A DNA stretch of 40,203 bases, taken from a virus (taxonomy: Duplodnaviria > Caudoviricetes). The position numbers and the translations under genes are program-made. The DNA is taken from positions 1 through 40,203 of the IMG/VR virus record IMGVR_UViG_3300005805_000185. The stretch is one strand, 5' to 3'. The notes under the pieces were generated by a model. The model worked only from the letters and a program-made list of their open reading frames with translations, had not been told where the DNA came from and ran no database searches. Below are positions 1,316-18,788 of this stretch, piece after piece. Positions within the stretch are counted from its first letter, which is position 1. Each line of letters opens with the position of its first letter.

Positions 1316-1867
1316 ATGCAAATCAAAAAGCTAGCAGTAACGCTACTTTTTGTTATGCCTATATTAGCGCAAGCGCAATCTGATGTGATTGTTACGGATT
1401 CAAGAAGTACAAGTACTGTAACAACTAATAGTAACAGCGTTAATGAAACAACTGTTAAATCACCTCCAGCATCTGCTATATCGCCTACTATGACGATATT
1501 AAACAATGACATTTGCACAACAGGTGTCAGCGGAGCAGTTCAAACACAAATATTAGGTTTCTCTGGTGGTACAACGGTACGTGATATGAATTGTGAGAGA
1601 TTAAAGTTAGCTAAGTCATTGTTTGACATGGGGATGAAGGTCGCTGCTGTAGCAACATTATGTCAGGATGATAGAGTGTTTTCTGCAATGATGAATGCAG
1701 GAACTCCATGCCCTGTTGATGGTAAAATTGGTGATGAAGCAAAAAGAGTATGGGAAGATAATCCAAACCGTAAACCAACTCCTATGAAAGAAAAAGACGA
1801 TGCAAGTTTCTGGCAAAAAGTTTCTGCTGGTCTTGGCGCTCTGGCTATCATTCTTCTCCTTTTGTAA
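1316..1867 (+). CDS. Hypothetical exported protein with C-terminal membrane anchor
   Basis: Signal peptide (KK, hydrophobic core, AQA), Ser/Thr-rich linker, 4 Cys, hydrophobic C-terminus; AAGGA RBS. Confidence 0.8.
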   Translation: MQIKKLAVTLLFVMPILAQAQSDVIVTDSRSTSTVTTNSNSVNETTVKSPPASAISPTMTILNNDICTTGVSGAVQTQILGFSGGTTVRDMNCERLKLAKSLFDMGMKVAAVATLCQDDRVFSAMMNAGTPCPVDGKIGDEAKRVWEDNPNRKPTPMKEKDDASFWQKVSAGLGALAIILLLL

Positions 1868-3887
1868 TTCCCAACAGGTCAACACCACTCCAAACTTAAT
1901 TACCAACAGTTGGAGTGGTGTAGTTCCTTATTCTGGAACAGGAGCAGGGTTTTCTGGAGGAAGCGCTCCTGGATACAATTCCTCTACACAAACAATTTAT
2001 TTTGGATATGTTCAATCTACCGTTTCTCAAGCTCATGCAATTAGTTCTGCCTTGAGTGGAAGCGGTATTCAAGTTGGCGGAGTAAATTATGGCTTTCAAT
2101 ATTTCAACCAGGACACTGCAAGAGGTTCTCTCTCAGTAAGAGCTACCCTATATGATTCGTCTGGATCAATACTAAGTAATTATAATCATACGCTTGGACA
2201 AACAACAAGCGGGTGGACAAACTTTAATCAGACACAAACGTTTGCTAATCCATATAGTTTATCTAGTTTAGGTAATGTAACGTTATCAATTACAGGAAAA
2301 GATGATAGATTTTGGGCTGGATTCTATGGACCTCAGGTTAGGAACTCATATCTATCTCTCAATTACACAGTTGATCCTTGTGTAGGAAATCCTCGTTATT
2401 CGCCATCTTGCCCAGGATATAACAGTTCAGATATGTGGTATTCTGGAAATTTAAGTTCAGTTTATGGATCTTCTTTTGCTATAAATCAAGCATTAGGATT
2501 TGGAAACTCAGGTGTTCGTGTACATAGTGTTAATTGGGGATATGATTATAATATTGGAGGAAGATACTGTAGCGGATGGAATTTATTTGGTATTTGTTTT
2601 TTATGGAGCGATAGTGAAGTATCAGGAAGTCTAGACGTGCGTAATAGCGGCAATCAAGTTATATTGTCGGATAATAAAACAACGTCAGGGGAAGATATCT
2701 CTGGAAGTTTTCGTCGTGAAGTTTTGCTAGGAGATAATAGCAGAGACATTTCAACATTAGGAACTGCAAATATAAACCTATCGACTACGGGTATAGCAAC
2801 AGCTTCTCCATATATCGGATTTAACTTCTCGCCAGATATATGTAATACTAATCCTCTAATTAACTCTCAATGCCCTGGCTATGCTCAAGCGCTATTTACA
2901 CAGCAGTGTACTGCTAATCCTTTGTCAGATGTGCTTTGTCCGGGATATGCACAAGCATATTTAAATCAACAATGTTCATTAAGTGCGTTATATAATCCAA
3001 GCTGTCCTGGATACGCTGTTGCGTATTTTAATCAACAATGTACAGTTAGTCCTTTGTATAGCCCACAGTGTCCGGGGTATGCTCAAGCATTATTTACAAA
3101 AACATGCAATGATAACCCACTATCAGATACTAAATGTCCATTATATCAACAGGCGTATTTAAACCAGCAATGTACATTAAATTCTCTTTACTCTACTGAA
3201 TGCCCTTCATACCAGCAGGCTTACTTTAACCAGCAGTGTTCATTAACACCATTATATAATACAGCATGTCCAGGATATGCTGAAGCATTTAGAAGTAAAC
3301 AAATAGCTGACGCCTGTGCGGCTAATCCACAATCAAATCCAAGCTGCAAGGGTTACACAGTACTTCAATCGTCTTCAACGACTACAATAACGACAACAGC
3401 AGTTTCTACATCAGTGCCTTCAATTATCATGCCCGGGTCTGATCCTGTTACATCAATTACTCAACCTAAAGTAGTTGATGATACGGTTGTCAACCAACTA
3501 ATTGAAAAACCGCAACAAAAAGCTGAGACATCTTTTCAAGTATCCCCACAAGTACAATCACAGCAAACGCAGGGTCCAAGACAACAAGCAAGAGCGACAC
3601 AGCAAACAAGATCACAACAAAACTCAACGTCCAGATCAAATATTGCATCACAGCCTCGTGTAGTAACAAGTGAAGAAAAGAAAGAAGAAGATAAAATGGC
3701 AGCGCTTTCTAGTATACCAGGTTTCTCTGCTTATGAAAATGCAAGACTTCCAGATGTAACCTTTTATAAGGTAGAGGATATTTATAAGCGTGCATCTATT
3801 TCTGATAATGTAAGAGCGCAGAGACTTTTAAATCAACGATCAGATAGATTACATAGGGAGATGGTAGATGAGCAGTACAGAAAATAA
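1800..3887 (+). CDS. Hypothetical exported Cys-rich repeat protein (exact start uncertain)
   Basis: 695-aa ORF with a signal-like N-terminus, two related beta-rich domains, 22-aa Cys repeats and a Thr/Gln-rich tail. Confidence 0.85.
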   Translation: MQVSGKKFLLVLALWLSFFSFCNSQQVNTTPNLITNSWSGVVPYSGTGAGFSGGSAPGYNSSTQTIYFGYVQSTVSQAHAISSALSGSGIQVGGVNYGFQYFNQDTARGSLSVRATLYDSSGSILSNYNHTLGQTTSGWTNFNQTQTFANPYSLSSLGNVTLSITGKDDRFWAGFYGPQVRNSYLSLNYTVDPCVGNPRYSPSCPGYNSSDMWYSGNLSSVYGSSFAINQALGFGNSGVRVHSVNWGYDYNIGGRYCSGWNLFGICFLWSDSEVSGSLDVRNSGNQVILSDNKTTSGEDISGSFRREVLLGDNSRDISTLGTANINLSTTGIATASPYIGFNFSPDICNTNPLINSQCPGYAQALFTQQCTANPLSDVLCPGYAQAYLNQQCSLSALYNPSCPGYAVAYFNQQCTVSPLYSPQCPGYAQALFTKTCNDNPLSDTKCPLYQQAYLNQQCTLNSLYSTECPSYQQAYFNQQCSLTPLYNTACPGYAEAFRSKQIADACAANPQSNPSCKGYTVLQSSSTTTITTTAVSTSVPSIIMPGSDPVTSITQPKVVDDTVVNQLIEKPQQKAETSFQVSPQVQSQQTQGPRQQARATQQTRSQQNSTSRSNIASQPRVVTSEEKKEEDKMAALSSIPGFSAYENARLPDVTFYKVEDIYKRASISDNVRAQRLLNQRSDRLHREMVDEQYRK
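2841..3356 (+). repeat. Coding tandem repeat, ~8 degenerate copies of 66 nt (22 aa)
   Basis: Unit C-x2-(N/S)PL-x4-CPGYAQA(L/Y)(F/L)-x-QQ; first Cys codons at 2841 and 2907 are 66 nt apart. Confidence 0.9.
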
Positions 3888-4503
3888 GGACCTTAATAAA
3901 GAGGTAGAAAAGTTAGAAGGAGCTATGAAGCAGTATGCAAGTAAAGATACTGTTATTAGTATCGGAGGATATAGTTTTACTCCAGCTAAATTAATGATTG
4001 CTTTTGGTATTATATCCTCTGTTATTGGAGGTTTATACGGTGTATTTGAAACATATAAAGATTATATGGGAATGAAAAAGAAAATTGCTGATTATGTTGC
4101 ACCCGACTTTAGTGAATATGAAGCTCGTATTATAAAGTTAGAAGCTGATAACGAAAAGATGTTAGGTTATACTCGCGATGTAAACACAAATCTTAAAAGT
4201 GATATTCGTCGTACCGAACAGGTTTTAGAAGGTGTAGAAAGAGGATCTAAAACTGCTCAGAGAGAAGTTGAGAAAGACGTAAACGACATTCGTCGTCAAA
4301 TTGATTTAGAAATAAAAGAGATACGTCGCAGCGCTGATTCCCAGGTAAGAGAAATGCAAAAACAGGTTGATTCAACAGTACAGAATGTAAATGAAAGAGT
4401 GAATCGTATTGAGCGTGAAACAAATAGTGAACTAAGAGTTATTCGTCGTGAAGTAGATGACAAAATTAAAAAGGCATTAGATAATCCATTATCAAATAAC
4501 TGA
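3868..4503 (+). CDS. Hypothetical single-TM protein with long coiled coil
   Basis: TM segment LMIAFGIISSVIGGLYGVF followed by a charged helical region; GGAG-like RBS upstream. Confidence 0.8.
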   Translation: MSSTENKDLNKEVEKLEGAMKQYASKDTVISIGGYSFTPAKLMIAFGIISSVIGGLYGVFETYKDYMGMKKKIADYVAPDFSEYEARIIKLEADNEKMLGYTRDVNTNLKSDIRRTEQVLEGVERGSKTAQREVEKDVNDIRRQIDLEIKEIRRSADSQVREMQKQVDSTVQNVNERVNRIERETNSELRVIRREVDDKIKKALDNPLSNN

Positions 4504-4510
4504 GGTTAAT

Positions 4511-4909
4511 ATGAAAACATTTAATGATTTTGTTAAAGAAGAAAGATACCCTGAACACCAGCCCATGGAACAAAAATCGGCAAACGATGTAGCTGCAGCC
4601 CTAGGTAAAGCTAAAACCAATGCAATGTTAAATCATGAAGCATTTAGGGAATATCATGGTTTTGAAAAAGCATATAGACATGGTGTTACCCGATCAGGAT
4701 TTCATGAAGTACATGTATTTCCTTACATGCATAGTGTACACAAAACCGAAGAAGGACATATAAGGCCGACCACTATGTTAAAATTTCATTTTAAAGCTTC
4801 CGGAGGTGTTTCTCAAGTACACAAATTTATTCGTAGCGAAAAACCTAACGATGAAGAAAAACAACGCCGGGGAACTGAATGGTCGTTTGTAAAAACTTGG
4901 AAAAAATAA
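4511..4909 (+). CDS. Hypothetical protein, possible internal head protein
   Basis: GAGG RBS; N-terminus MKTFNDFVKEE resembles the T4 capsid-targeting sequence. Confidence 0.7.
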   Translation: MKTFNDFVKEERYPEHQPMEQKSANDVAAALGKAKTNAMLNHEAFREYHGFEKAYRHGVTRSGFHEVHVFPYMHSVHKTEEGHIRPTTMLKFHFKASGGVSQVHKFIRSEKPNDEEKQRRGTEWSFVKTWKK

Positions 4910-4917
4910 TAAATTAA

Positions 4918-5436
4918 ATGGATCCCGTTACACTACTTGGCACAGTTACCGCAGCTTTTAATGGAATTAAGGCTGCGGTTAAGGTTGGTCAAGAAGTAGA
5001 AGGAGTTTATAGACAGCTGGCTAAATGGGCAGATGCAGCAGGCCAGCTACAACAAATGATAAATGATAGTAAGACCGATACCGGAGAACAAAAAGCAGGT
5101 TTATTTGAAAAAATAGGATTTAAGAAAAGTGTTACTGGAGAAGCATTTGATATCATTATAGCACAGCAAAAACTACGAGAGATGGATAATGAAATATATA
5201 ATATGTTTCTTTATGGTGAATTACAAGAGTTAGGAGCAGAAGGTTATAGTCAATTTATTCAGCTCAGAAGAGAAGTAAGAGAAAAGCGTGAACGAATGAT
5301 TCGTGATCAGGCAAGAAGAAGAAAACGATTTATAGAAAATATGTTTTGGGGAACGCTACTTATTATAACATTAGTAATAGCGTTAAAATTCTTTATATGG
5401 ATTTACGACATCGGCAAAGATGCTGGAAAGTGGTAA
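4918..5436 (+). CDS. Hypothetical membrane protein
   Basis: Helical protein; basic patch RRRKR followed by a C-terminal TM helix. Confidence 0.75.
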   Translation: MDPVTLLGTVTAAFNGIKAAVKVGQEVEGVYRQLAKWADAAGQLQQMINDSKTDTGEQKAGLFEKIGFKKSVTGEAFDIIIAQQKLREMDNEIYNMFLYGELQELGAEGYSQFIQLRREVREKRERMIRDQARRRKRFIENMFWGTLLIITLVIALKFFIWIYDIGKDAGKW

Positions 5437-5438
5437 AA

Positions 5439-5741
5439 ATGAAAAAAATATTATTTTTAGCTTTATTTTTATTCAGCACTAAAGCTTTAGCACAAGCGTT
5501 TCTTCCTGTTGATTGTGGAACGATTGCAAACTTATCTGAAGTATTAGTAGAATATGATGAAAAGCCATTTGCAATTGCTGAAACAACAAGAGAGAGTAAC
5601 GGAAGAAGAGCTAATTTTACAGTATTCTTTTTTCTTAACCCTAAAACAGGAACATGGACTGTTGCTGAAAAGGTAAATGAAAATCTTTACTGTATAGTAT
5701 CCTCAGGAAGAAACTTCTTTTTAGTAGAAAAGCCTATTTAA
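5439..5741 (+). CDS. Hypothetical exported protein
   Basis: Start moved to 5439 (MKKILFLALFLFSTKALA, signal peptide), 2 nt after the previous stop; one Cys pair. Confidence 0.75.
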   Translation: MKKILFLALFLFSTKALAQAFLPVDCGTIANLSEVLVEYDEKPFAIAETTRESNGRRANFTVFFFLNPKTGTWTVAEKVNENLYCIVSSGRNFFLVEKPI

Positions 5742-7485: not shown

Positions 7486-8146
7486 CTTGTTCCTTGTAAG
7501 TGCTTGCCGATTCAGTAGCTACCCAATACTCTACATCTCCGCCAGTAAAATGAGCAATACCTTTTGATGAGATCTCGACTCTATAATCCTCGTTAAGCAT
7601 TTTAATGTTTTCAGAAAGAAAAATCATCTTAAAAGTAGCGTTAGTAGTACCTACCTCAACACTAAACTTATCGCTCGTTGGATTTTTAGAATCAATAGCC
7701 TGCACAGACATGACTCCATCTTCACCATTTATAGCTAGCTCGGGCAAACCAAGCACGCCCATAGCTTTAAGAACACTTTGCAGTACTTCAGCTTTTAAAT
7801 CAAGCTCAATATCTACACTTGGAATCTTAACTTCCTTGTCACCGGGAGTGACTATAAGCTTGGGATCGGCGTATGTATATTGTACATGTCGACCTCCGCC
7901 GCTGATGGTCAAGAACCTTTCTTCAAGTGTAAGTGTAGGAGATTCGAACAAGGATAGGATACCTAAAAACCTCGACAAATCGTAGATAGCAAAAGTATGT
8001 GGGATATGCTCTTTAATAGCAGCTTTTGCCATCATAGTTTTATTAGGTGAAATTGTGGTAATAAAGCTACCCTGTTTAAACTGCAAGGATGGATTAATAG
8101 ATGCAAAATTCTTCAATATCTGAAGAGTGCGCCCTTCTAGCTTCAT
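7478..8146 (-). CDS. gp45: Sliding clamp
   Basis: LKNFASINPS, FAIYDLSRFL, YWVATE; upstream of gp44. Confidence 0.95.
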   Translation of the reverse strand: MKLEGRTLQILKNFASINPSLQFKQGSFITTISPNKTMMAKAAIKEHIPHTFAIYDLSRFLGILSLFESPTLTLEERFLTISGGGRHVQYTYADPKLIVTPGDKEVKIPSVDIELDLKAEVLQSVLKAMGVLGLPELAINGEDGVMSVQAIDSKNPTSDKFSVEVGTTNATFKMIFLSENIKMLNEDYRVEISSKGIAHFTGGDVEYWVATESASTYKEQDA

Positions 8147-9096
8147 TTGCTGCCTTTCTTTTTAATTTTACTTACATCAGCTGTTGCTGATGCACCAATT
8201 GTAGCAAGGTCTATCAAGCTACCGCCAAAGATATAACTACCGACGTGCTGGAGCTTCATCCAAGGACACAAATAGCCACGACCACCCATCTTAGCTACAT
8301 TATAACAAAACATATAATCTTCAGACAAGTAACGCTTAGATGCTCCTTCTTTCTTATCCAGCATCTCTTTAGCACGATCCTGAAGACCTTCGACACCATT
8401 AGCGACATCATCAAGAAGCTGATGTAGTGTCTCATCACCGTAGCCGCGATCCACTACGCAGTCAAAAAAGGCATGTATTTCACGAGAACCATCAAATGCC
8501 TCTGTACGTACATGATCGGGCTTGTAGCTAAGATGGGGGTAGGCTTTTTTATAATCTTCAAATACCTTACGTCTAATCATCATAAAACCAGTACCAAGCT
8601 CTAATACCTCTACAGGCTCACCTAGAGGAATCTCTCTCTGACCTGACTTAGGATTAAATACATAGTCTCCTACAAACTTATCTAAGTCATTAGGGTTATC
8701 ATCAGCAGCCCCTTTGTCTACAGCCTGTTTAATCTTTTCCCAAGAGATACACTTCTTTGGATAAGGGCCTCCAAGAATATCATAGGGTGATTCATCAGAC
8801 ATTAATGCTAGCATGGCTACCACATCATGTGGATTAAAGCCAATATCGCTATCGATGAACATAAGGTGAGTAGCATCTGACCGAAGAAATTCATCTACAC
8901 AATAATTACGTGCACGAGTAATCAATGACTCGTTAAACAGATAGTACAATTGAAGGGGGACCTGATACTTTGCAAACAATGCTGACATATCAGCAATAGA
9001 TTTAGTATACATTCCAGCGCACTGGCCACCATACATTGGCGTAGCTAGAAATAACTTCTTTTTTCTTAGTTCTTCAATACTAATTTCAATCTTCAT
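8143..9096 (-). CDS. GT-A fold glycosyltransferase-like protein
   Basis: LATPMYGG, LITRARN, FIDSD (DxD), GTGFM, YLSEDY, HVG. Confidence 0.75.
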   Translation of the reverse strand: MKIEISIEELRKKKLFLATPMYGGQCAGMYTKSIADMSALFAKYQVPLQLYYLFNESLITRARNYCVDEFLRSDATHLMFIDSDIGFNPHDVVAMLALMSDESPYDILGGPYPKKCISWEKIKQAVDKGAADDNPNDLDKFVGDYVFNPKSGQREIPLGEPVEVLELGTGFMMIRRKVFEDYKKAYPHLSYKPDHVRTEAFDGSREIHAFFDCVVDRGYGDETLHQLLDDVANGVEGLQDRAKEMLDKKEGASKRYLSEDYMFCYNVAKMGGRGYLCPWMKLQHVGSYIFGGSLIDLATIGASATADVSKIKKKGSK

Positions 9097-9111: not shown

Positions 9112-9630
9112 TTAGTTATGATATTTTTTTTCATCTTCTTTAGGCTTACCAGTATTATCAAAGCCATATGAGCCGTCATATTCATGAAGCATTTCAGCAT
9201 CAAAGCTTAGATATTGACCAATCCTTGTACCTTTTTTAATTCTAGCAGCTCCAATCGTTACATGAAGTACCGCGGCCATAGTACCGTGGTAACCGCTATC
9301 GTAGAGACCAGATGTAAGAAAAAGCCCATTACGGTTAAGAGTGCTCCTCGTAATAACCCAACCAGCTTCATTCTTACCTACATTAATAATATTTTCCATC
9401 ACTACTTCATAGTGCCCCGGTTCAAGCGTAAAGTATCCATCTTGACTAGGTTTAATCTCATACTCTGTGCCGCGATGCTTCTTTTCATCATTAGAGATTT
9501 GAAAATAGTCGTTCTTAATTTTAAATACTTTATCCAACCGAAGGTCAACAGCATTAGGTTGACAATCACCGTCTTTTACTTCAGTCAAAGTAGTCCCTGA
9601 ACCAGGTCCGAGTACATGTTTCATATTCAT
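9112..9630 (-). CDS. dUTPase / dCTP deaminase family protein
   Basis: QPNAVDLRL, RSTLNRNG, DSGYHG, RIGQ, YDGSY trimeric dUTPase-fold motifs. Confidence 0.85.
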   Translation of the reverse strand: MNMKHVLGPGSGTTLTEVKDGDCQPNAVDLRLDKVFKIKNDYFQISNDEKKHRGTEYEIKPSQDGYFTLEPGHYEVVMENIINVGKNEAGWVITRSTLNRNGLFLTSGLYDSGYHGTMAAVLHVTIGAARIKKGTRIGQYLSFDAEMLHEYDGSYGFDNTGKPKEDEKKYHN

Positions 9631-10256
9631 TCAGCTCCAAAATAATATGGATTATTCACTGTCTTAAAAGAAAAGCCAGTCTTGTTTAGACGTTTATGAT
9701 TAAAATCAATCTCGAGTATACACTCTGATGGTGTTTCTACACTACCAGTAAATTTAGTAGATGAAAGGTTTAGCTTATCATCGTAAAACATAGGGCTAAT
9801 ATCATTCCTAAAAAGATAAGCTCCAAAACCATCATAATACAAACAACTAAAAGATCCGTCCATGAGGCGAAGCTCAGAAACAGACCGGTTGATAGATCTG
9901 AGAAGAAGTTCCGTATCCCATTCAATATCTTGTCCATAGCGTTCCTGAAGCTGTTTAACATAGTTAGCTTTAATAATGCCATTATGCCATAGCCTAGTAT
10001 TATTTTCCATAGCTGGATGAATGTTACCTGCTTCTTTAGCTTCTGTAGTAGGAGCTTGTACGTGAACTATTCCGTATCCATTGTTTGGTATCTCTATTAT
10101 ATCTGGATTGATAGTTCCTAACTCTCTGGCATGAATCCGAAGACCGTTAACACTATCGTAGGTGGTAAACGAATATGAATGACTGCCACGATAGCTGTTC
10201 AACTCAATAAGTTCTAAGAGTTTATCTCTATTAAAGCTTGCAACGATGGCACACAT
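9627..10256 (-). CDS. Stand-alone class II glutamine amidotransferase (Ntn) domain
   Basis: N-terminal Cys (MCAI), RG, HP, HNGII, DTE, GSFS; abuts queC. Confidence 0.82.
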   Translation of the reverse strand: MCAIVASFNRDKLLELIELNSYRGSHSYSFTTYDSVNGLRIHARELGTINPDIIEIPNNGYGIVHVQAPTTEAKEAGNIHPAMENNTRLWHNGIIKANYVKQLQERYGQDIEWDTELLLRSINRSVSELRLMDGSFSCLYYDGFGAYLFRNDISPMFYDDKLNLSSTKFTGSVETPSECILEIDFNHKRLNKTGFSFKTVNNPYYFGAE

Positions 10257-11005
10257 TATTTAATTAAATTATCCCAAGGAATGTCAATGCTGTACGGAAT
10301 AGGATCTTTAATACCTGCTTTTGCAAAATTTGCAATACGTTCGCTACAGGAAGGACACTTACCACAACTCTTACCCTCAACATCTGGATTGTAACATGTA
10401 AGAGTACACTCAAACAACACGTTACCGAGCTCCTGTGCAATTAGAATCTCTTCATATTTGGAAAGATGACTAAATGGAGCTTCCATTCTTACTTTATGAG
10501 AGCGATTTTGATCAGCTACAGCGTTCATTGAATCTACAAAACGTTGGGTAGTATCCCAGTACCCGTACTGATCATGTACTTGCAACCCAGTAAATACGTG
10601 ACTTGCCTTATTTGATTCAGCGAACGAAAACGCTAACGAATTTAAGATCATATTCCTAAACGGGACATAAGTCTTAGGTTGAGGATCTCCAAGCACATCT
10701 TTAATAGTAGGCATACTAACATTTGTACCGCCGATGTTAGCTGACACCTCTTTCACTATTTCACCTAGAATAGCCAAATCAAGAACTTTATGCTTCACCC
10801 CCAACCAACTACAAGAGGCACTTGCCATTAAAAGTTCGCGCTTTTGTTTCTGTCCATAATCATAGGACAAAGCATACACTCGTTCCTTACCGTACTTCTT
10901 TACTAGGATGTACGTAAGAATTGTAGAATCAAGACCGCCGGATAGTACTGAAACAACATTGTGTTCAGTCTCGGGCAGTTTTGCTAGTGCTTGTTCTAAG
11001 TTCAT
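10256..11005 (-). CDS. queC: 7-cyano-7-deazaguanine (preQ0) synthase
   Basis: SGGLDS, YGQ, TYVPFRN, CY...CGKCPSC zinc site. Confidence 0.95.
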   Translation of the reverse strand: MNLEQALAKLPETEHNVVSVLSGGLDSTILTYILVKKYGKERVYALSYDYGQKQKRELLMASASCSWLGVKHKVLDLAILGEIVKEVSANIGGTNVSMPTIKDVLGDPQPKTYVPFRNMILNSLAFSFAESNKASHVFTGLQVHDQYGYWDTTQRFVDSMNAVADQNRSHKVRMEAPFSHLSKYEEILIAQELGNVLFECTLTCYNPDVEGKSCGKCPSCSERIANFAKAGIKDPIPYSIDIPWDNLIK

Positions 11006-11177
11006 CTTTTAACCTTTCAACATAAACAGCTGCATCAAGTAGTTCTTCTTGTAGGTGCTGTAACCAACCAAGCAGATCGATATCTGTTCTTTCTGTTGTA
11101 ACACCGTACTTTGCATATCCTCTTTGCATTCGTTCAAGTAATGATTGACGAATGGCTTCAACATTCTTATCAATCAT
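10965..11177 (-). CDS. Small all-alpha NTP pyrophosphatase (MazG-like) candidate
   Basis: KYG...WLQHLQEELLDAAVY with EExxD; start at 11177 overlaps the queF stop (ATGA). Confidence 0.6.
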   Translation of the reverse strand: MIDKNVEAIRQSLLERMQRGYAKYGVTTERTDIDLLGWLQHLQEELLDAAVYVERLKDELRTSTSKTARD

Positions 11178-12100
11178 TGTCTTGGAGTCTTTTCGCAAAA
11201 ATGACTAGCATCAGTAATCTTACAGTTCTCCCATACCACATCAAAGCTACTACCACGTACAGGGTTAATATCAATACCACCTCGACGAGTGTACAAGCAT
11301 GTAACTAATAGCTCTTCAGGACTTAGAAGATCGTGCAACCTCTTGTAAATTACTTCACAAATCTCTTCATGAAAATGATTCTCTTTACGCATGCTTACAA
11401 TATACTTAAGAAGAGACTCTGGTGTAACGGCTTTATCACCCTTAATATGAATATATACATCGCCCCAATCTGGCTGATTAGTAACTCTGCAGTTCGAACG
11501 CAGACTGTGTGAACGCCAACGTTCATATCTTCCTATGCTCGGTACCACTTCGAGAATGTTAGCACTTTCGTTATAGATATTAAACTGCATCTTCTCTACA
11601 TTACAGTAACGTTCAAGCGAAGTATAATCACCGATCATTGGTCGAACAGTATCGACGTCACCGATAGAAATACACACATCAACCCATTTGCCTACTGCCT
11701 GTTCGAGGTCTTGAGCAATGCGTTCTTCAATGTACGAAATCTCATCCACAGAATCGATCAGTCGTGCCATATTGTAGCTGTTAAGATAAAGCTTAACCGA
11801 CTTAGATTCTACAATGTTAGGTGAATCAGATGGGTAGACAAATTTAAGCCAACCACTGACAGGGAATCCGTTGGTGAGGAGGGTAGAAAATTCATAAGCG
11901 TTCCAAGCATCGATGCCATCAAAAGGAAGATCATTATCATGAATATCGTAACCAACACGGTTAAGAGAACGAGGAACAGCAACAAGAAGAGAAGGATCCA
12001 CGTCATCAGGCGTAACGTACGGTTTAACAACAGTTCCATCACCAGCCTTTCCTAAATGTTGACTTACAAGCTTGTTAAGTAGTTCTTGATTATCCATCAT
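11174..12100 (-). CDS. queF: NADPH-dependent preQ0 reductase, bimodular type
   Basis: QueF motif ESKSVKLY, catalytic SNCRVTNQPDWG, FHEE, TRRGGIDINP. Confidence 0.95.
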   Translation of the reverse strand: MMDNQELLNKLVSQHLGKAGDGTVVKPYVTPDDVDPSLLVAVPRSLNRVGYDIHDNDLPFDGIDAWNAYEFSTLLTNGFPVSGWLKFVYPSDSPNIVESKSVKLYLNSYNMARLIDSVDEISYIEERIAQDLEQAVGKWVDVCISIGDVDTVRPMIGDYTSLERYCNVEKMQFNIYNESANILEVVPSIGRYERWRSHSLRSNCRVTNQPDWGDVYIHIKGDKAVTPESLLKYIVSMRKENHFHEEICEVIYKRLHDLLSPEELLVTCLYTRRGGIDINPVRGSSFDVVWENCKITDASHFCEKTPRQ

Positions 12101-12630
12101 CTTCCTTCTAATAAGTCCATAATAATGTTCACTCTGTTACGCACAGTACCCTTAACTCTGCGTACAGGTAGCTTTTTCCTATCAATAGTATTTTCAAATA
12201 TTTCGAGTACTTCATCTCTAAAAATAACATCGGTACTGCGCGTTCCATCATCAACAATATCGAATTCAGGCTCAATGTAGAACATGTGATCGTAATGTTC
12301 CCATACCTTATTAAAAACATCATTTACATACTTAAGAGTGCTTTGTTCAATCTGTGCGTGCTTGTACAAGTACGTAGAATATACAAGCCCGTCTAGCGCG
12401 GTTCTATCTGCAAGCATATTATCGTACATAAAAACATTTACAATATGCTCATTCATGATAAGACGCTGTGTTATATCCGTACCCTGCTCGTTTATAGGTA
12501 ACCCATAACTCTTTACCCGTCTTGTTACTTCATCACAAACAGCATAGGTTTGAAAAAACTTTTCTGAACGTAGCGCATTTAAAAGTGTTGTTTTGCCAAC
12601 AGACTGTGCACCGGTAATACCAATACGAAT
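12097..12630 (-). CDS. P-loop nucleotide kinase / AAA_28-like ATPase with probable ATT start
   Basis: Frame stays open upstream of the tracked ATG (12456) and reads IRIGITGAQSVGKTTLL (Walker A); also DRTALD and DDGTR; GAGGTG RBS before the ATT at 12630. Confidence 0.8.
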   Translation of the reverse strand: MRIGITGAQSVGKTTLLNALRSEKFFQTYAVCDEVTRRVKSYGLPINEQGTDITQRLIMNEHIVNVFMYDNMLADRTALDGLVYSTYLYKHAQIEQSTLKYVNDVFNKVWEHYDHMFYIEPEFDIVDDGTRSTDVIFRDEVLEIFENTIDRKKLPVRRVKGTVRNRVNIIMDLLEGR

Positions 12631-12639
12631 TTTACACCT

Positions 12640-13260
12640 CTACACTAAGTTGATTTGTTTAAGTGCAAACTGCCATGCAGTAAGAGATGTCATTTTAAGT
12701 GACGTGTAGACATCATCTAGTGAATAGCACCTATTTGAAACATGTACAGATTTTATAATATCCCCTTCATCAACACCAGCTGTCACTTTATGTACTACGC
12801 TACCTATAAATGGATATTTTTCTTTGTTATCCCACGTTCTCTCTTGTGGATCCTTACCTTTCAGCTCCGGATACAAATCGATGGCAGCAGGATGACCATT
12901 GTATATGGTATACTTGTCACATACATTAGGAGGAATGATTCGAAGGTAGCCATGAAGTGTAATAATAGTTCTTTCAGGGTGAAAGAAGTTACTATTGCTA
13001 AAATAGTCCATTAACTGTTGATGAGTACCATACATAACGACCTTACTGTATTGTTTTAAACTAGGACTAATCTTGTACTTGTCTTCTTTAGTATTGTTAG
13101 TTACAGTAAGATCAGGTTTACGACCTAGCAGTTTACTAAGCTCGGCTATCTCCGAACCAGTTTGACTAAAGAACGCAATCCAGGACTTATCGTACGATTT
13201 GTTTAAACCAGTCGATGTTTCTTCTAATCGTAGCTCTTGTTCGTTCATCGATATATTCAT
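12640..13260 (-). CDS. dpdN: PurN-like formyltransferase, probable preQ1 formyltransferase (start 13260 or 13248)
   Basis: FSQTGS, LHGYLRI, NGHP, GSVVHKVTAGVDEG; adjacent to dpdA and two genes from queF. Confidence 0.78.
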   Translation of the reverse strand: MNISMNEQELRLEETSTGLNKSYDKSWIAFFSQTGSEIAELSKLLGRKPDLTVTNNTKEDKYKISPSLKQYSKVVMYGTHQQLMDYFSNSNFFHPERTIITLHGYLRIIPPNVCDKYTIYNGHPAAIDLYPELKGKDPQERTWDNKEKYPFIGSVVHKVTAGVDEGDIIKSVHVSNRCYSLDDVYTSLKMTSLTAWQFALKQINLV

Positions 13261-13972
13261 TAATAAGAGTAAAAAGTTTAACTGAAGGTTTGTCTTCTAA
13301 TCCGCACACACCATCGTATTCTATACCTTTAATTCCTGCTACTACAGGGTTAGAAGTGTCAAGACTATCAATCCACTCATATCCCTTATACGATTTAAAC
13401 TCTTGAGGTAAGCCGCATCCAAGCAGATGATGAGGTTTACTTGTATTAATTATGTTATTATACAGCAGTCGATGTATAAGATCGTCGCGACCGAACATGT
13501 AATAGTGAAACTTAGTAGGCAAGTTACCATACTGATCCGCATCGATAAAAAAACTATAGTCAAAAGAGATAGCCACTTTATCAACATGAGGTTCTATCTC
13601 TTTATAACACCACTCCATTTCATCATAATTTTTACCTTGAACAACTCCGATAGACTTACAGCCGGCTACATGTTGCCACTCTTTTACATTCTTAACAGTA
13701 ACTTGAGCATCTTCCAATTTGTCAGGAATAATGTACCAAGTAGGTTGAAGGCGTTCTATCCAAGGATAAAACTTATCAGCACTAAATGCTTCACCTAGCT
13801 CAAAAATAGAATTATCGAGAATAATCTCTCGACCCTTCCCTTTAGCTTGTACAAACTTATCCCAATACTCATCGTTTTCTTCAAACAAGTGTACTAGCGC
13901 GTAATCATAGTCGGTAAGATTCTGCACTTCATCAAAAATACTAAGAGGTGCTTCATGAGCAATTTTAGTCAT
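13187..13972 (-). CDS. dpdA: TGT-like 7-deazaguanine transglycosylase (DpdA family, possibly DpdA3-type)
   Basis: ILDNSIFE, IPD, GVVQG, HLLGCG and SLDTS follow the TGT barrel motif order; que-gene context. Confidence 0.8.
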   Translation of the reverse strand: MTKIAHEAPLSIFDEVQNLTDYDYALVHLFEENDEYWDKFVQAKGKGREIILDNSIFELGEAFSADKFYPWIERLQPTWYIIPDKLEDAQVTVKNVKEWQHVAGCKSIGVVQGKNYDEMEWCYKEIEPHVDKVAISFDYSFFIDADQYGNLPTKFHYYMFGRDDLIHRLLYNNIINTSKPHHLLGCGLPQEFKSYKGYEWIDSLDTSNPVVAGIKGIEYDGVCGLEDKPSVKLFTLINEYIDERTRATIRRNIDWFKQIVR

Positions 13973-14376
13973 TCTATACCCTCAAAAGCATGTTCAACAG
14001 CCCCAATGGCACGTGCTTTTTCACGTTTCTGGTAATACGAAGTGCTAAGTCGTTTAAAAGAATGTATGATATGGTTGACCTGGGTATGATCATTAAATTC
14101 TACAATCTCTGTAACGCCAGATATCTTTTCATTAAGCCAAAGATTTTTTGGGTAAATAGCTTTTAGCGCTTCTTCTATTCCAATCATCTGCTCCATAGGA
14201 CCATACACAGTACACATTATTTTAATGTCCCACTTACTGTACTGCTCTGGTTCATACTTGAAACGATCCATAGCATCATAGCTTTTAGTGTGACCGAACT
14301 TATAAAATACTTGCTTGGTCTGCTTGTCAGTAAACCTAGCAAAGTAAACCTTACCGTTCTCAGTATCATTCTTCAT
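13969..14376 (-). CDS. GIY-YIG / T5orf172-like endonuclease candidate
   Basis: VYF...YKFGHT...DR...E...GVTE pattern; start moved to MKNDTENG. Confidence 0.55.
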   Translation of the reverse strand: MKNDTENGKVYFARFTDKQTKQVFYKFGHTKSYDAMDRFKYEPEQYSKWDIKIMCTVYGPMEQMIGIEEALKAIYPKNLWLNEKISGVTEIVEFNDHTQVNHIIHSFKRLSTSYYQKREKARAIGAVEHAFEGIE

Positions 14377-14614
14377 ACAGTTTTCTCTGTTTAAATGACT
14401 TCTCTTGTTTAGTTTCTTCTTTAAAGATTTTCCTAGGGCTTGCACAAATTATGCATTTAGGATTACCGCAGTCCATAGCATGATGTTTATTATAACGATG
14501 TTCTTCTTTTACATCTAGACCATGAGACTTAGCAATTTCAGCCTGTTTGTGAGCTGCGGCTTCATCTTTATGTCTACGCTTTGAATGTTTAATTTTAGTA
14601 TCTTCACTACTCAT
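14366..14614 (-). CDS. Hypothetical basic protein with putative zinc site
   Basis: HH-x3-C-x4-C-x2-C; GAAGGG RBS. Confidence 0.7.
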   Translation of the reverse strand: MSSEDTKIKHSKRRHKDEAAAHKQAEIAKSHGLDVKEEHRYNKHHAMDCGNPKCIICASPRKIFKEETKQEKSFKQRKLYEE

Positions 14615-14627
14615 AGTGACCCTTCAA

Positions 14628-15077
14628 TTAATGATTTTCTACCTTTTCACCTTCTTTAGTAAAGAAAGCATTAATTTTTTTATCCTTGGTCCAGCTCCTG
14701 GTGTAGTCATTATCTTGATCGCAAATCTCTATTGCTTCTTCTTCTGTAACAACTCTATGACTAATAATTTGGTTGCCTAGGAACTTTTGACTAAATTCTT
14801 TAGCCTCTTCCATTACAACTGTGTCAAGTGCCCAATCAGCTTTTCCTTTAGGAACCTGAACCATAAACCTCATTCTAAACGTTTCAACTGTTTCAACTAA
14901 TACCCATTCCTTATCTACTTCAGATTCCTTCTTAGAAAGTACGTAAGAGTCGCCTTCCTTACTCCAAACGACTGTATCGCCTACTTTCCATCCTACTTGT
15001 TCCATTAGTTCATCGGGAAAGGTAAGAATAAGTTCACCATTAAGATCTTCTACAACATTACCAGTGTAAGTGCTCAT
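14628..15077 (-). CDS. AbrB/MazE-like DNA-binding domain fused to an unknown domain
   Basis: ELILTFPDELMEQVGWKVGDTVVW swapped-hairpin signature; GGAG RBS. Confidence 0.65.
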   Translation of the reverse strand: MSTYTGNVVEDLNGELILTFPDELMEQVGWKVGDTVVWSKEGDSYVLSKKESEVDKEWVLVETVETFRMRFMVQVPKGKADWALDTVVMEEAKEFSQKFLGNQIISHRVVTEEEAIEICDQDNDYTRSWTKDKKINAFFTKEGEKVENH

Positions 15078-15101
15078 GTTATCTCCAAGTTATGGACGTT
15101 A

Positions 15102-15130
15102 ATAATATAATTAACCTACTTCCTAATCAA
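15102..15130 (-). promoter_or_regulatory. Sigma70-type promoter upstream of the AbrB-like gene
   Basis: TTGATT-N17-TATTAT on the minus strand. Confidence 0.55.
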
Positions 15131-15793
15131 GGACATGAATTCAGCACGACAATCAGGTTCGTTCCTAAAACATCCTCCGAGCTTGGCTGTCATAGTATAC
15201 GATGAACTATCTTCTACCCCTCTACTTTTCACGCAGTAATGAGTGCCTTCAATCACTACAGCAACATCTTCCGTATCAAGAATATAAGAAAGCGCATGAT
15301 AGACTTGCTCGGCAATCCTCTCTTGTACTTGAGGTCGACGAGCAAAATACTCAACAATACGATTAAGCTTAGATAATCCTAATACCTTATTCTTAGGAAT
15401 GTATGCAATATGAGCCTTACCGTCAATTGTGACGAAATGATGCTCGCAGTTACTTAGAAGGGTAATGTCTTTCTCCACTACCATTTCATCATAGCCCATT
15501 TTATTATCAATGACAGTGATCTTTGGAAAGTTCTCTGGTTTTAAACCCCAAAAGAACTCATTTACAAACATTTTAGCAACGCGTTTAGGAGTATCTACCA
15601 ACGAATCATCGTCAAGATCGAGTCCAAGGGCTATCATAATATCCCTGAACTTGTGCATAATATACTCGATCTTAAATTCGTTTGAAGCTTCAAGCTTAAC
15701 TGGAATGGTAGGAGTATGTACTCCTTTACTACGAAGATACTCTTCTACTTCAAATCCAAGATTAGCGTCTACCTTTTCTTTTTGAAAAGACAT
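15116..15793 (-). CDS. folE: GTP cyclohydrolase I
   Basis: TPKRVAK, CEHH, GLSKL, RRPQVQER, HYCVKSRG. Confidence 0.97.
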   Translation of the reverse strand: MSFQKEKVDANLGFEVEEYLRSKGVHTPTIPVKLEASNEFKIEYIMHKFRDIMIALGLDLDDDSLVDTPKRVAKMFVNEFFWGLKPENFPKITVIDNKMGYDEMVVEKDITLLSNCEHHFVTIDGKAHIAYIPKNKVLGLSKLNRIVEYFARRPQVQERIAEQVYHALSYILDTEDVAVVIEGTHYCVKSRGVEDSSSYTMTAKLGGCFRNEPDCRAEFMSLIRK

Positions 15794-15802
15794 ATAAAAT
15801 CC

Positions 15803-16465
15803 TTATACGTTATGTTTTGCGTTTTCGTTAGTAGGAGCAATCGATACTAGAGGTGTAAGTGCTAAAATTACTGCAAGTTTAAACAATGTTGAACCTGAAA
15901 CGATTCTAGCTATGGCAGTACTCCAATCCATAGCATTTCCGCCAAGTACCATAGGAAGAGTGACAAAAGCAAGTACAACAAAGATAACAGCATCAACTGG
16001 GAGACTAAACAAGTTAGATACAAACGTCCTCATCCAAGAACCATACTCCCTATCCCATAGCCACTGATATACTTTTGTGTTGACCCATTGAGATACAATG
16101 GTTGCTACTTCAGATCCAATAACAATGCCAAGTGACATTTTAAATACGGCATCGAAATTAATGCTAGGTCTAAATGAAGGTGAAGGAATAAATGTCATAA
16201 CGTACATGAACAGCGCTACTGCGACATTTAGCACAACACCAAACAATATGATACGATTTACAAATGCAGCACCGGCGAGCTTGTGAAGCATGTCCCTAAC
16301 TACAAACACTACAGCAAATAGCAGAGCACCGGCCGGGGTGACTACGTAACCCAGATCCAAGAATTTAACAGCAGCAAAATCAGCTACTGTCATAGCCATA
16401 ATTAAAGTAGAAGCAAGTGCAGCAATCCAAAGATTATTTCTGTTATCAATAATAGTTGAGTTCAT
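15803..16465 (-). CDS. yhhQ: Queuosine-precursor (preQ0/preQ1) transporter, VUT family
   Basis: About 6 TM helices; AVK, PAG...F...D, RTFVSN motifs; lies between queD and folE. Confidence 0.82.
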   Translation of the reverse strand: MNSTIIDNRNNLWIAALASTLIMAMTVADFAAVKFLDLGYVVTPAGALLFAVVFVVRDMLHKLAGAAFVNRIILFGVVLNVAVALFMYVMTFIPSPSFRPSINFDAVFKMSLGIVIGSEVATIVSQWVNTKVYQWLWDREYGSWMRTFVSNLFSLPVDAVIFVVLAFVTLPMVLGGNAMDWSTAIARIVSGSTLFKLAVILALTPLVSIAPTNENAKHNV

Positions 16466-16475
16466 TTATATCTCC

Positions 16476-16940
16476 TTATTCATTAATCCACATAGCTGAA
16501 TTTGATGGTGTCTCCATAACTTTCACTACTCGTAACTTAACCCTGCCATCTCCGTAACCGTTTTCAGGCATCCAAATTTCTTGAATGTAGTCGGCTAAAA
16601 ACTTGGAGAGACCTTCGCAGCCAACCCTATCTACCACCACTAGTTTAAGTAATTTTCGGTTGTGGAGGTCTTCCCAAGTCTTTAGTTCTGGATCATCTTG
16701 AGCCGAGAGAAACGTATGATCAAACCAATCATCTAGTTTTTCTTTGAGCGTCTTATAACCGCCAAAGTCAACACACCAATTACGAGCATCCAAATCATTT
16801 TCATCACACTCAAATTCAAAATGAAAAGCTAAAGCATAACCATGAATCATATTACAATGAGTATCGGCTTTCCATTGACGATATGCAACGGCGTACCCTC
16901 TTTCGTGACCATAAGTTTTTGTACTGATAAACTTACCCAT
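16476..16940 (-). CDS. queD: 6-carboxy-5,6,7,8-tetrahydropterin synthase
   Basis: C-x3-HG, VDFG, FDH, C-terminal ETPSN (PTPS T-fold). Confidence 0.88.
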   Translation of the reverse strand: MGKFISTKTYGHERGYAVAYRQWKADTHCNMIHGYALAFHFEFECDENDLDARNWCVDFGGYKTLKEKLDDWFDHTFLSAQDDPELKTWEDLHNRKLLKLVVVDRVGCEGLSKFLADYIQEIWMPENGYGDGRVKLRVVKVMETPSNSAMWINE

Positions 16941-17937
16941 TAACTAACTCCTTAAATACTCTGTTTACTTCCTTAGTAAATCTTTCTTTTGATCGTAGTT
17001 GTCTTAAATTGTCCGTACAGTTAGCAAAAGTGTTTGATATATGATGTACCTTGTATACCCTTTCAAAATCTTTACCGTCGTACAATTCTGTATAGTAGTC
17101 CATCATTTTGACAAACGTTACTACATCATTATAGTCTACCTCAGTAAAAATAGGCTCGTTAAAGTAGTATCTGCTCCCTATACCACTATACCCGATAACC
17201 TTGCATCCGGAAAGTGCAGCCTCCATTGGAGGTAGAGCACTACCTTCACCCAATGGAGTGCAAAGGAAGGCAAAAATTTTTGCCCTTGACATTTCTTCAG
17301 CTACTTGTCTATGGGACATGTTTTGAATAATCTTAACATTCCAGTTCGGATAACGCTCATTAAAAATTTTAATAAGCATATGTGATACTACGTTGCCCGG
17401 TTGCTTATTCATCACCAGGATAGTGTTTTCTTTCTCACCTGGAATAAAGTACTCATCGATAGGATTCTCAATATGAAAGATCTTATCAGGTGTTATCTTA
17501 AACAAGGTGGTTATACCTTGGGTAATGTAAGGTGAGATAGTAATGAACCCTTCACAGCGTTCATATACTCTCTTGGCATAACTGTATGAAATGTTTAATC
17601 CTACATTATCAGTGAGAGTGGAGGTAAGTCCTTGATGAAGCATAAACATTCGAGGATCATTAGTTATAAGGTGATCAAAGCACCAAATGCCTTCTTCATG
17701 AATTATAACAATATCATCTTTAGTAATTATTCGAACATCATCATAAACGGGTACGTTGGTCTCAAACCAAGATGGCTTGTAGTCTTTAGGGCAATCATTT
17801 GGATATAGGTGAGCTCCAGGTATTAAAATACTTGCGTCATAACCACCATTAATTAGAGCTTGAGCATACTCGAATAATACTTTAACACCACCATTTGGAG
17901 TTTTAGCTCCTATATGGCAAAACACGTATACCTTCAT
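16933..17937 (-). CDS. GT-B (GT4-like) glycosyltransferase
   Basis: N-terminal NGGVKV and EX7E motif EGSALPPMEAALSG; start moved to 17937 (TAATG overlap with queE). Confidence 0.82.
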   Translation of the reverse strand: MKVYVFCHIGAKTPNGGVKVLFEYAQALINGGYDASILIPGAHLYPNDCPKDYKPSWFETNVPVYDDVRIITKDDIVIIHEEGIWCFDHLITNDPRMFMLHQGLTSTLTDNVGLNISYSYAKRVYERCEGFITISPYITQGITTLFKITPDKIFHIENPIDEYFIPGEKENTILVMNKQPGNVVSHMLIKIFNERYPNWNVKIIQNMSHRQVAEEMSRAKIFAFLCTPLGEGSALPPMEAALSGCKVIGYSGIGSRYYFNEPIFTEVDYNDVVTFVKMMDYYTELYDGKDFERVYKVHHISNTFANCTDNLRQLRSKERFTKEVNRVFKELVNG

Positions 17938-18788
17938 TAAGTTCCCCAAGCGTTTTTAAAGAGAGGGATCTGCAAACGATCTGAATACCGGTACCCCTTT
18001 CGCATTGCGAGTTCTGCAACTGATTTATTATTAAGATGGTACAGCTGCTCAGTACCGCCAACAGGCATAAGGTAAACAGGACCACTAAAACCTTTTTTAC
18101 GATATGCATTAACAGCCTCCTCTGCTTCATCAGCATCTTCCTGGCTAGCAATAACAAATTTAAGATAGGTATAACCAATAGATTCATAGTCAACAATTAT
18201 CTCTGGCTTTATTGCATCATCCCATTTTTCACCACTTACGCTCAGTTTAGGTGATACAGAGAATGTTAGCTCTCTAGGACGTCTGACAGCATTCCAATCT
18301 AGCCAATCTTGCAAATAGAGATAAAATTCATCACTAAGCTCTTGAGTTCCATTTGTCTCAAACGTAAGTTCTTTCAACCCTTCCATTTTTTTATTCTCAA
18401 GCAAGTCAGGATAAGACCTTTGCCAACCAAGTAACGGTTCACCGCCAGTAATTACCAGATGTTCGTCTTTCCATTCCTTGTACGGTAGGATATCCACAAT
18501 TGAATTGGCCAATGAATTACAATCCAATACAGGGCTAAGATGCTTAAACCTAGGATCCCACGAAGCATATGAATCACACCCGGTGTGTACGAGTGGGAGG
18601 TCGTTGTACTTGGTGTAGTTTTCTGGGACGATTTTAAGATGTTCTTCACTCTTTTGTCCTTTTGGCATTCCAAAACCGCTACAAGTAAAATTGCAGCCAA
18701 ATGTACGAAGGAAGATACTAGGTGCACCCATGTACCTACCTTCACCTTGAATGGAATAAAATAGCTCGGCTACTTTGAGTTTAGACAT
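17937..18788 (-). CDS. queE: 7-carboxy-7-deazaguanine synthase (radical SAM)
   Basis: ELFYSIQGEG, FLRTFGCN, ITGGEP, ETNG, SVSPK. Confidence 0.94.
   Translation of the reverse strand: MSKLKVAELFYSIQGEGRYMGAPSIFLRTFGCNFTCSGFGMPKGQKSEEHLKIVPENYTKYNDLPLVHTGCDSYASWDPRFKHLSPVLDCNSLANSIVDILPYKEWKDEHLVITGGEPLLGWQRSYPDLLENKKMEGLKELTFETNGTQELSDEFYLYLQDWLDWNAVRRPRELTFSVSPKLSVSGEKWDDAIKPEIIVDYESIGYTYLKFVIASQEDADEAEEAVNAYRKKGFSGPVYLMPVGGTEQLYHLNNKSVAELAMRKGYRYSDRLQIPLFKNAWGT

Follow-up and report, generated by a model that had tools for sequence, protein, structure and literature searches.

Kinase-type genes beside phage dpdA3 suggest guanine exchange on free dGMP before replication

Complete replacement of guanine in phage DNA is associated with the transglycosylase DpdA3. 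According to Cui et al. 2023 (PMC10516641), replacement reaches 100% with DpdA3, compared with 30% or less with DpdA1 and DpdA2, and the DNA of Flavobacterium phage immuto_2-6A contains 100% fdPreQ1 in place of dG. All these modifications are proposed there to be post-replicative, and tests of DpdA3 in E. coli failed. A MazG/dUTPase of Cellulophaga phage phiST is noted without being given a role, the phiST gene CGPG_00066 is set aside, and in the available text and supplement the word "kinase" has zero occurrences. Bacterial DpdA exchanges bases in duplex DNA, and bDpdA acts on plasmid DNA (PMC10164549). In phages with a Z-genome, Dut-like enzymes hydrolyse both dATP and dGTP to the monophosphates, whereas bases are swapped at the level of the deoxynucleoside monophosphate (dNMP) by DmtZ, which acts on dAMP (PMC12884076). 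Here, we analyze a 40,203-nucleotide stretch of phage DNA (Caudoviricetes; IMG/VR record IMGVR_UViG_3300005805_000185, henceforth the window) carrying a gene cluster for DpdA3, the PurN-like formyltransferase DpdN, a P-loop kinase, QueF and a 70-aa protein. An initial annotation of this DNA had suggested pre-replicative, possibly complete, replacement of G, on the understanding that DpdA3-type phages replace G fully and probably at the nucleotide level. The available parts of PMC10516641 contain no such nucleotide-level proposal, and the pre-replicative idea contradicts that paper, in which modification after replication is proposed. No proposal of a pre-replicative DpdA3 route was found in the literature, judged mostly at abstract level, and one may be in print.

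The five genes are present and tightly packed, as initially described; they lie on the minus strand, head to tail, and are tightly coupled. The first, annotated initially as a TGT-like (tRNA-guanine transglycosylase-like) enzyme, is dpdA3 (13187..13972, minus strand), encoding a minimal TGT-fold guanine transglycosylase of 261 aa with 54% identity to YP_010114477 of immuto_2-6A and 38.5% to YP_009169190 of Campylobacter phage CP220, both tabulated as DpdA3 (supplement sheet DS1, PMC10516641). Its structural model (pLDDT 93) has the TGT fold (Z 17.6 to arcTGT 1iq8, rmsd 2.9, 231 residues aligned). D53, D84 and D205 are kept in 84/84 homologs and, judging by the order of the motifs, probably correspond to Asp95, Asp130 and Asp256 of bDpdA. 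By sequence, the protein is a member of the DpdA3 subfamily. The PurN paralog is dpdN (12640..13260, minus strand, the start being either 13260 or 13248; PF00551, E 4.8e-8), whose product shares 45% identity with immuto DpdN YP_010114479 across 179 aa. No ATG is found where one would be usual, at the dpdA3 stop, and because there is no nearer ATG, dpdN must start inside dpdA3, with an overlap of 62-74 nt. DpdN is predicted to formylate preQ1 or dPreQ1.

Phage immuto_2-6A shows the same dpdA3-dpdN-kinase-queF order, with identities of 54, 45 and 36% for the first three products, a small gene between dpdA3 and dpdN, and a full FolE-QueD-QueE-QueC-QueF set. In the window, this set is likewise co-encoded with DpdA3 and the DpdN-group PF00551 formyltransferase, all inside 10256-18788. 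The order is not due to chance, as it recurs in immuto_2-6A and many IMG/VR loci. Together with the identity of DpdA3 and DpdN to their immuto counterparts and the full fdPreQ1 substitution of that phage, it indicates that the cluster is a new member of the described immuto-type DpdA3/DpdN system. Complete replacement of dG in virion DNA is predicted, with fdPreQ1 as the predicted base, so that the initial suggestion of complete formyl-preQ1 replacement stands as a prediction. The two phages differ in several respects: the window phage has a T4-like backbone, whereas immuto_2-6A is a PolA-type Immutovirus; dUTPase-fold and 70-aa genes in the window contrast with a PRA-PH hydrolase upstream of dpdA3 in immuto_2-6A; and the window has a Vut_1 transporter and lacks a phosphoribosyltransferase (PRTase).

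The gene next to these two was followed across phages. Ninety-one DpdA3 loci were collected, namely the best 80 of at least 552 IMG/VR matches (30 of 64 parts scanned), four phiST-like loci, six from GenBank and the window. Seven were dropped before counting: six with less than 1.3 kb of downstream sequence, of which two were positive, and the negative locus L069, whose sequence breaks off directly behind dpdN. In 83 of the 84 loci left (85 of 91 if none is dropped), and in 66 of 67 clusters after dereplication at 90%, dpdA3 has a kinase-type gene no more than 2.5 kb away. Fifty-eight loci have a P-loop kinase (that of L093 being counted by hand from its P-loop), 24 have DUF3310, one has both and one has neither; this last locus carries a DpdL-kinase fusion at 2.7 kb. 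By comparison, no kinase profile match was obtained in 85 DpdA1 loci (47 clusters at 90%), where two motif-only matches are not kinase-like, and four of 85 DpdA2 loci (33 clusters, many with T4-like neighbours) were positive, three with DUF3310 and one with a P-loop kinase. These counts bear out the initial view of the kinase as a likely pathway member. DpdL-kinase fusions were seen in phiST-like DpdA3 loci, at L093:5012-5980 and L094:2279-3265.

Unrelated families fill this slot almost exclusively: AAA_28, the phiST type, DUF3310 and a T4-gp1-type dNMP kinase. DUF3310 sits between dpdN and queF and is fused to DpdA3 in RHph_I1_18. T7 gp1.7, which phosphorylates dTMP and dGMP (PMC11897194, citing Tran 2012), is itself a DUF3310 protein (E 4.5e-23). 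On a quick IQ-TREE tree of the 67 dereplicated DpdA3 proteins, the kinase and DUF3310 states need at least five changes, four of which are forced by starred branches for DUF3310. In all three phages for which Cui 2023 measured or cited 100% replacement, a P-loop kinase adjoins dpdA3: gp203 in immuto_2-6A, gp057 together with the HD-kinase fusion gp055 in CP220, and CGPG_00066 in phiST (PF13238, E 9.4e-7). CP220 (dADG) and phiST (dDG) thus resemble the window in having DpdA3 with an adjacent P-loop kinase, but differ in predicted base and in lacking QueF and DpdN; phiST has MazG in its cluster and a kinase of another subfamily than that of the window. BSP7 and MA9V-3 likewise have a P-loop kinase next to dpdA3.

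Three further genomes were opened after this pattern had been set. Ahp1_CNU-2021 and D479 carry the order dpdL-dpdA3-PF21448 dNMP kinase-dUTPase-fold gene, and in Bakedbeans a dpdA3 that matches only weakly (E 4e-5) precedes a similar-looking P-loop kinase, read from motifs. Vibrio phages D479 (L350:2109-3998) and Bakedbeans (L353:92-2846) are cultured and carry DpdA3, a dNMP kinase and DpdL without annotation; their genomes are candidates for complete dDG. Another Vibrio phage, VP1, is described as fully dDG-substituted (bioRxiv 2025.10.29.685425). In Bakedbeans there are, in addition, a DHFR-like gene and another P-loop kinase gene upstream of dpdA3.

In the window, the slot is occupied by a P-loop deoxynucleoside(monophosphate) kinase gene of the AAA_28 type (12097..12630, minus strand; PF13521, E 2.8e-16; phrog_2107, E 1.7e-24), whose product is 36% identical to immuto gp203 and 30% to CP220 gp057. 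Residues G7, G12, K13, D75 and R76 are conserved in 98-100% of 60 kinase homologs, and we take the N-terminal P-loop with the DR motif to indicate the dNK/TMK type. The likely start codon is ATT. No ATG, GTG or TTG is found upstream of the P-loop, for which reason an open reading frame finder returns only a 119-aa fragment, and the frame is open from an ATT at 12628-12630, 4 nt behind GAGGTG. The same ATT occupies this position in the independent IMG/VR contig L154. An ATG at exactly the ATT offset is present in 42 of 70 homolog rows, and most others have it one or two codons upstream. Read-through of the TAG, fusing DpdN to the kinase, was considered and rejected, because most homologous kinases have their own ATG at the ATT position and L154 shares the ATT. 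The unusual junctions at dpdN and at the kinase gene are both matched letter for letter by contigs of three runs (from one study, which may include the source sample), and a sequencing error was not seen in these contigs.

A second function accompanies dpdA3. The window gene at 9112..9630 (minus strand) encodes a dUTPase/dCTP-deaminase-fold protein (PF22769, E 9.3e-15; PF00692) that is matched at E<1e-6 in only four of 50,697 phage records (GenBank), all four of which encode DpdA3. Within 5.5 kb, a pyrophosphatase-type gene is present in 57 of the 59 DpdA3 loci with enough flanking sequence, against 0 of 65 DpdA1 and 0 of 85 DpdA2 loci. The folds alternate: a dUTPase-fold gene in 30 loci, PRA-PH in or beside its slot in seven, the immuto PRA-PH in 19 and the phiST MazG in two, with a single overlap, in one of the seven. 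The 9112-9630 protein is the best candidate for converting dGTP to dGMP and PPi, and would fit this dGTP-removing role better than the 70-aa protein to which the initial annotation had tentatively assigned it.

The 70-aa protein (10965..11177, minus strand) belongs to an unnamed, widespread viral family (224 GenBank records, mostly siphoviruses; 5756 clusters at 50%). Its ATG overlaps the queF stop and its 3' end overlaps queC by 41 nt. The sequence contains EELLD within a conserved R-G-KYG-TER-D-W-H-EExxD-Y pattern, EExxD being a metal-binding motif. E44, E45 and D48 are invariant in 13 of 13 sequences and conserved at 95-98% in 92, while no second ExxE helix was seen. The label "MazG-like" stands at the level of the EExxD motif only. 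The Pfam families MazG, MazG-like, PRA-PH, DUF550, DUF5664 and dUTPase_2 gave no match at E<=2 with 40 domain sequences and the NP1 homolog, nor at E<=0.5 with the window protein; hhalign against six shallow local alignments gave probabilities below 1%, and Pfam, PDB sequences, BFVD, VIA-align wide and ESM Atlas returned only unnamed viral relatives. The monomer model is a two-helix hairpin (pTM 0.53; best fold match Z 4.2). The protein thus shares an all-helical model and one EExxD motif with the all-alpha NTP pyrophosphatases MazG and PRA-PH, but differs from them in lacking a profile match, in having one acidic helix only and in its own KYG-TER-D-W-H pattern. A role in nucleotide hydrolysis is plausible, though not specific.

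DpdA3 itself shares the TGT fold and the catalytic aspartate pattern with DpdA1, DpdA2 and bDpdA, which are post-replicative DNA transglycosylases, but it is shorter than the first two (median length 264 aa, against 308 for DpdA1 and 421 for DpdA2) and has kinase and pyrophosphatase neighbours that these nearly lack. The window protein has 4173 relatives at E<=1e-5. A search of lengths from 491 to 2000 aa gave five long DpdA3 fusions, three with QueF, one with an intein and one with an unnamed 320-aa N-terminal domain (P0121, P0123, P0124, P0125 and P0122), and no kinase fusion. Surface charge as a sign of a substrate other than DNA was discarded, as all three groups are acidic (median pI 5.16 for DpdA3, 5.57 for DpdA1 and 5.86 for DpdA2) and the measure does not discriminate.

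Unrelated kinase families lie almost always beside dpdA3 and are nearly absent at DpdA1 and DpdA2; on this genomic association, we therefore favour a swap of guanine on free dGMP before replication over the published post-replicative model, with a probability of roughly 0.6. From the gene identities and neighbourhood counts, which are direct observations, we infer every reaction of the following scheme. Cleavage of dGTP to dGMP by a pyrophosphatase, most likely the 9112-9630 protein and perhaps with assistance from the 70-aa protein, would both remove dGTP and supply the substrate. DpdA3, a stripped TGT barrel with its catalytic aspartates, would exchange the guanine of dGMP for preQ1 or formyl-preQ1, and DpdN, whose function is predicted in the literature, would formylate either the base or the nucleotide. 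Phosphorylation by the kinase would then turn the modified monophosphate into the diphosphate, leaving the last steps to an NDP kinase, of host or phage origin, and to the phage polymerase. Since three functions are coupled here, that is dGTP to dGMP, base exchange and dNMP phosphorylation, a pre-replicative route is the simplest reading. The precedent of the Z-genome enzymes (PMC12884076) also speaks for it, as do the free ADG nucleoside cited for CP220-infected cells and the failure of the DpdA3 tests in E. coli (PMC10516641).

If exchange on dGMP holds, this pathway would resemble that of the Z-genome (PurZ with MazZ, DUF550, DutZ or DUF5664, DatZ and DmtZ; PMC12884076, PMC8342488) in full base replacement, in the cutting of dGTP to dGMP, in the use of unrelated folds for one role and in base exchange on a dNMP, as by DmtZ. 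It would differ in replacing G, in using a TGT barrel and in having a dedicated kinase; no PurZ-like or NDT-fold match was found among the scanned proteins of the window (40 kb of the genome). A broader proposal would have DpdA3 act on free dGMP as one of three parts of a pre-replicative "G-genome" pathway, the guanine counterpart of the Z-genome, the other two being a dNMP kinase and a dGTP pyrophosphatase, each of them interchangeable. It would add that the 70-aa protein founds an unnamed and very widespread viral family of minimal dNTP pyrophosphatases; we rate this combination slightly better than even.

Several points weigh against exchange on free dGMP. The profiles used for kinases and for pyrophosphatases both derive from genes neighbouring dpdA3. 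Because of this origin of the kinase profiles, neighbour clusters of the control loci were also scanned with Pfam (135 of 140 representatives, of 423 clusters; about 941 of 1221 unlabelled genes, up to 330 aa), and among the 135 clusters the sole kinase or pyrophosphatase match was a DUF3310 cluster; this control was not exhaustive, as it missed a truncated MazG annotated near the BcepGomr dpdA1. Two lineages dominate the DpdA3 sample, and lineage bias affects the controls as well, DpdA1 amounting to seven clusters at 70% identity. The same AAA_28 kinase subfamily occurs in 89 Streptomyces phage records, one of which, when checked, had no DpdA3 match. PA5oct QCG76197, which Cui 2023 lists as DpdA3, is not accompanied by a kinase over the 7.4 kb examined, although it does not match the DpdA3 profiles. 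CP220 and BSP7 have no matching pyrophosphatase within 5.5 kb, and the 9112-9630 gene may be an ordinary dUTPase. The top PDB match of the window kinase is a nucleoside kinase. Finally, bacterial DpdA works on duplex DNA (PMC10164549), and the only paper on DpdA3 (PMC10516641) concludes that insertion is post-replicative. As to PA5oct QCG76197 itself (L345:733-2355), the protein has 540 aa and may represent a different type of DpdA, in which case partial modification would be expected. Phosso, which has DpdL, and Teutsch, which has the kinase, gave no DpdA3 match.

In the published model, DpdA3 would act on DNA as a highly efficient transglycosylase, exchanging every G once it has been replicated, and the kinases and pyrophosphatases would serve nucleotide supply or salvage from turned-over DNA. 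This is the conclusion of Cui 2023 (PMC10516641), and it agrees with the TGT fold and catalytic aspartates retained in DpdA3, with the activity of bDpdA on plasmid DNA (PMC10164549), with the frequent clustering of nucleotide-metabolism genes in phages and with the occurrence of the kinase family without DpdA3. It leaves unexplained, however, why several unrelated kinase families are found nearly exclusively in one slot, why DpdA3 is fused to DUF3310 and why such genes are nearly absent beside DpdA1 and DpdA2, and DpdA3 gave no result in E. coli (PMC10516641); we consider it rather unlikely. Exchange could also precede replication at the nucleoside level, with DpdA3 swapping the base on deoxyguanosine and a deoxynucleoside kinase making the monophosphate. 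The best PDB sequence match of the window kinase is indeed a deoxynucleoside kinase (E 0.0086), ADG nucleoside is cited as occurring free in CP220-infected cells (PMC10516641), NT5C-like phosphatases occur in 12 related loci and an HD domain lies beside the CP220 dpdA3. Yet the families that replace the kinase are monophosphate kinases (T7 gp1.7 type, PF21448), and the linked hydrolases come from families that release dNMP; we consider a nucleoside-level route very unlikely.

A variant within the pre-replicative readings, and the one put forward initially, makes the 70-aa protein the main dGTP-removing MazG. In its favour, near-invariance in the 92 sequences extends beyond EExxD to nine other residues, polar or aromatic, as in an enzyme site; three of 79 relatives are fused to a MazG domain; and the gene is translationally coupled to queF, with the family directly following queF at 18 of the 19 loci that have a que context. 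These 19, however, come from the best 80 IMG/VR relatives, the other 61 of which have no que or dpd gene in the 4-10 kb available. The GenBank records are mostly of siphoviruses, and in NP1, a DpdA1 phage, some 20 kb separate the homolog from dpdA. Seven T4-like loci that lack dpd genes show linkage of the family to a resident 317-aa gene family. The 70-aa gene occurs in only 17 of 59 DpdA3 loci, in the T4-like lineage only and always alongside another pyrophosphatase-type gene. With most relatives outside dpd clusters and the 9112-9630 protein fitting better, we regard dGTP removal mainly by the 70-aa protein as decidedly unlikely.

A PRTase as support for a route through the nucleotide pool was also rejected: the window has none, whereas 51 of 85 DpdA2 loci have one no more than 2.5 kb from dpdA2, so that it is not specific to DpdA3. 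DpdL occurs in 68 of these 85 loci (L262-L344). Since PRTase and DpdL sit by dpdA2, many aquatic DpdA2 phages may carry dDG. Nucleoside 2-deoxyribosyltransferase-like genes adjoin dpdA1 in five loci (e.g., L204:4984-5406 and L097:6718-7128).

The window, which is the entire contig, covers only 40 kb of a T4-like phage genome, identified as such by gene-family scans (gp23, gp20, terminase, gp44/45/62, gp46/47, gp55, UvsW and UvsY); no polymerase gene was recognised in it. The 7-deazaguanine island lies on the minus strand, flanked by gp46 and gp45, in the order queE, a glycosyltransferase-like gene, queD, the Vut_1 transporter gene, folE, three small genes, dpdA3-dpdN-kinase-queF-70-aa gene, queC, a 209-aa gene and the dUTPase-fold gene. 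All the following genes are on this strand. queF (11174..12100) encodes a bimodular preQ0 reductase (PF14819, E 2.3e-29; PF14489, E 1.1e-19), queC (10256..11005) a preQ0 synthase (PF06508, E 1e-52), folE (15116..15793) a GTP cyclohydrolase I (PF01227, E 3.2e-61) and queD (16476..16940) a PF01242 protein (E 7.1e-16). The product of queE (17937..18788) is a radical SAM protein with a weak PF04055 match, homologous to QueE-annotated genes of related loci. Inside the cluster, 15803..16465 encodes the Vut_1/YhhQ-type transporter (PF02592, E 5e-28); other Vut-like genes were seen in nine related loci. The 209-aa neighbour of queC (phrog_12378; 9627..10256) starts with MCAIV, is coupled to queC in numerous T4-like DpdA3 loci and occurs in 34 related IMG/VR loci; we take it to resemble a stand-alone amidotransferase domain.

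Further genes were noted around the island. A GT4-like gene at 16933-17949 (minus strand), between queE and queD, has few counterparts in related loci (2). Next to gp45 lies a gene of phrog_1574 for a 317-aa protein (8143-9096, minus strand); further sugar modification through either is possible. The gene directly upstream of dpdA3 (13969-14445, minus strand) belongs to a family found in 20 loci, a different, nuclease-looking family taking that place elsewhere; these may be free-standing homing endonucleases. At 38984-39832 (minus strand), a 282-aa protein (phrog_10255) fuses a P-loop kinase with a cytidylyltransferase-like domain. The otherwise minus-strand contig contains a plus-strand block at 1316-5741, which holds a 695-aa protein without Pfam or PHROG match.

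The route by which phages reach 100% guanine replacement has a published answer, post-replicative DpdA3, that was never reconstituted. Gene neighbourhoods point to a dNMP kinase and a dGTP pyrophosphatase as the parts that are probably missing from it, so that three small proteins would be enough to put the question to the test. If exchange on free dGMP is true, DpdA3 would be a case of a transglycosylase whose substrate is a free nucleotide, and nature would have a second way of fully substituting a purine in a genome; the pathway would also be an enzymatic source of 7-deaza-dGTP analogues and nuclease-resistant DNA.

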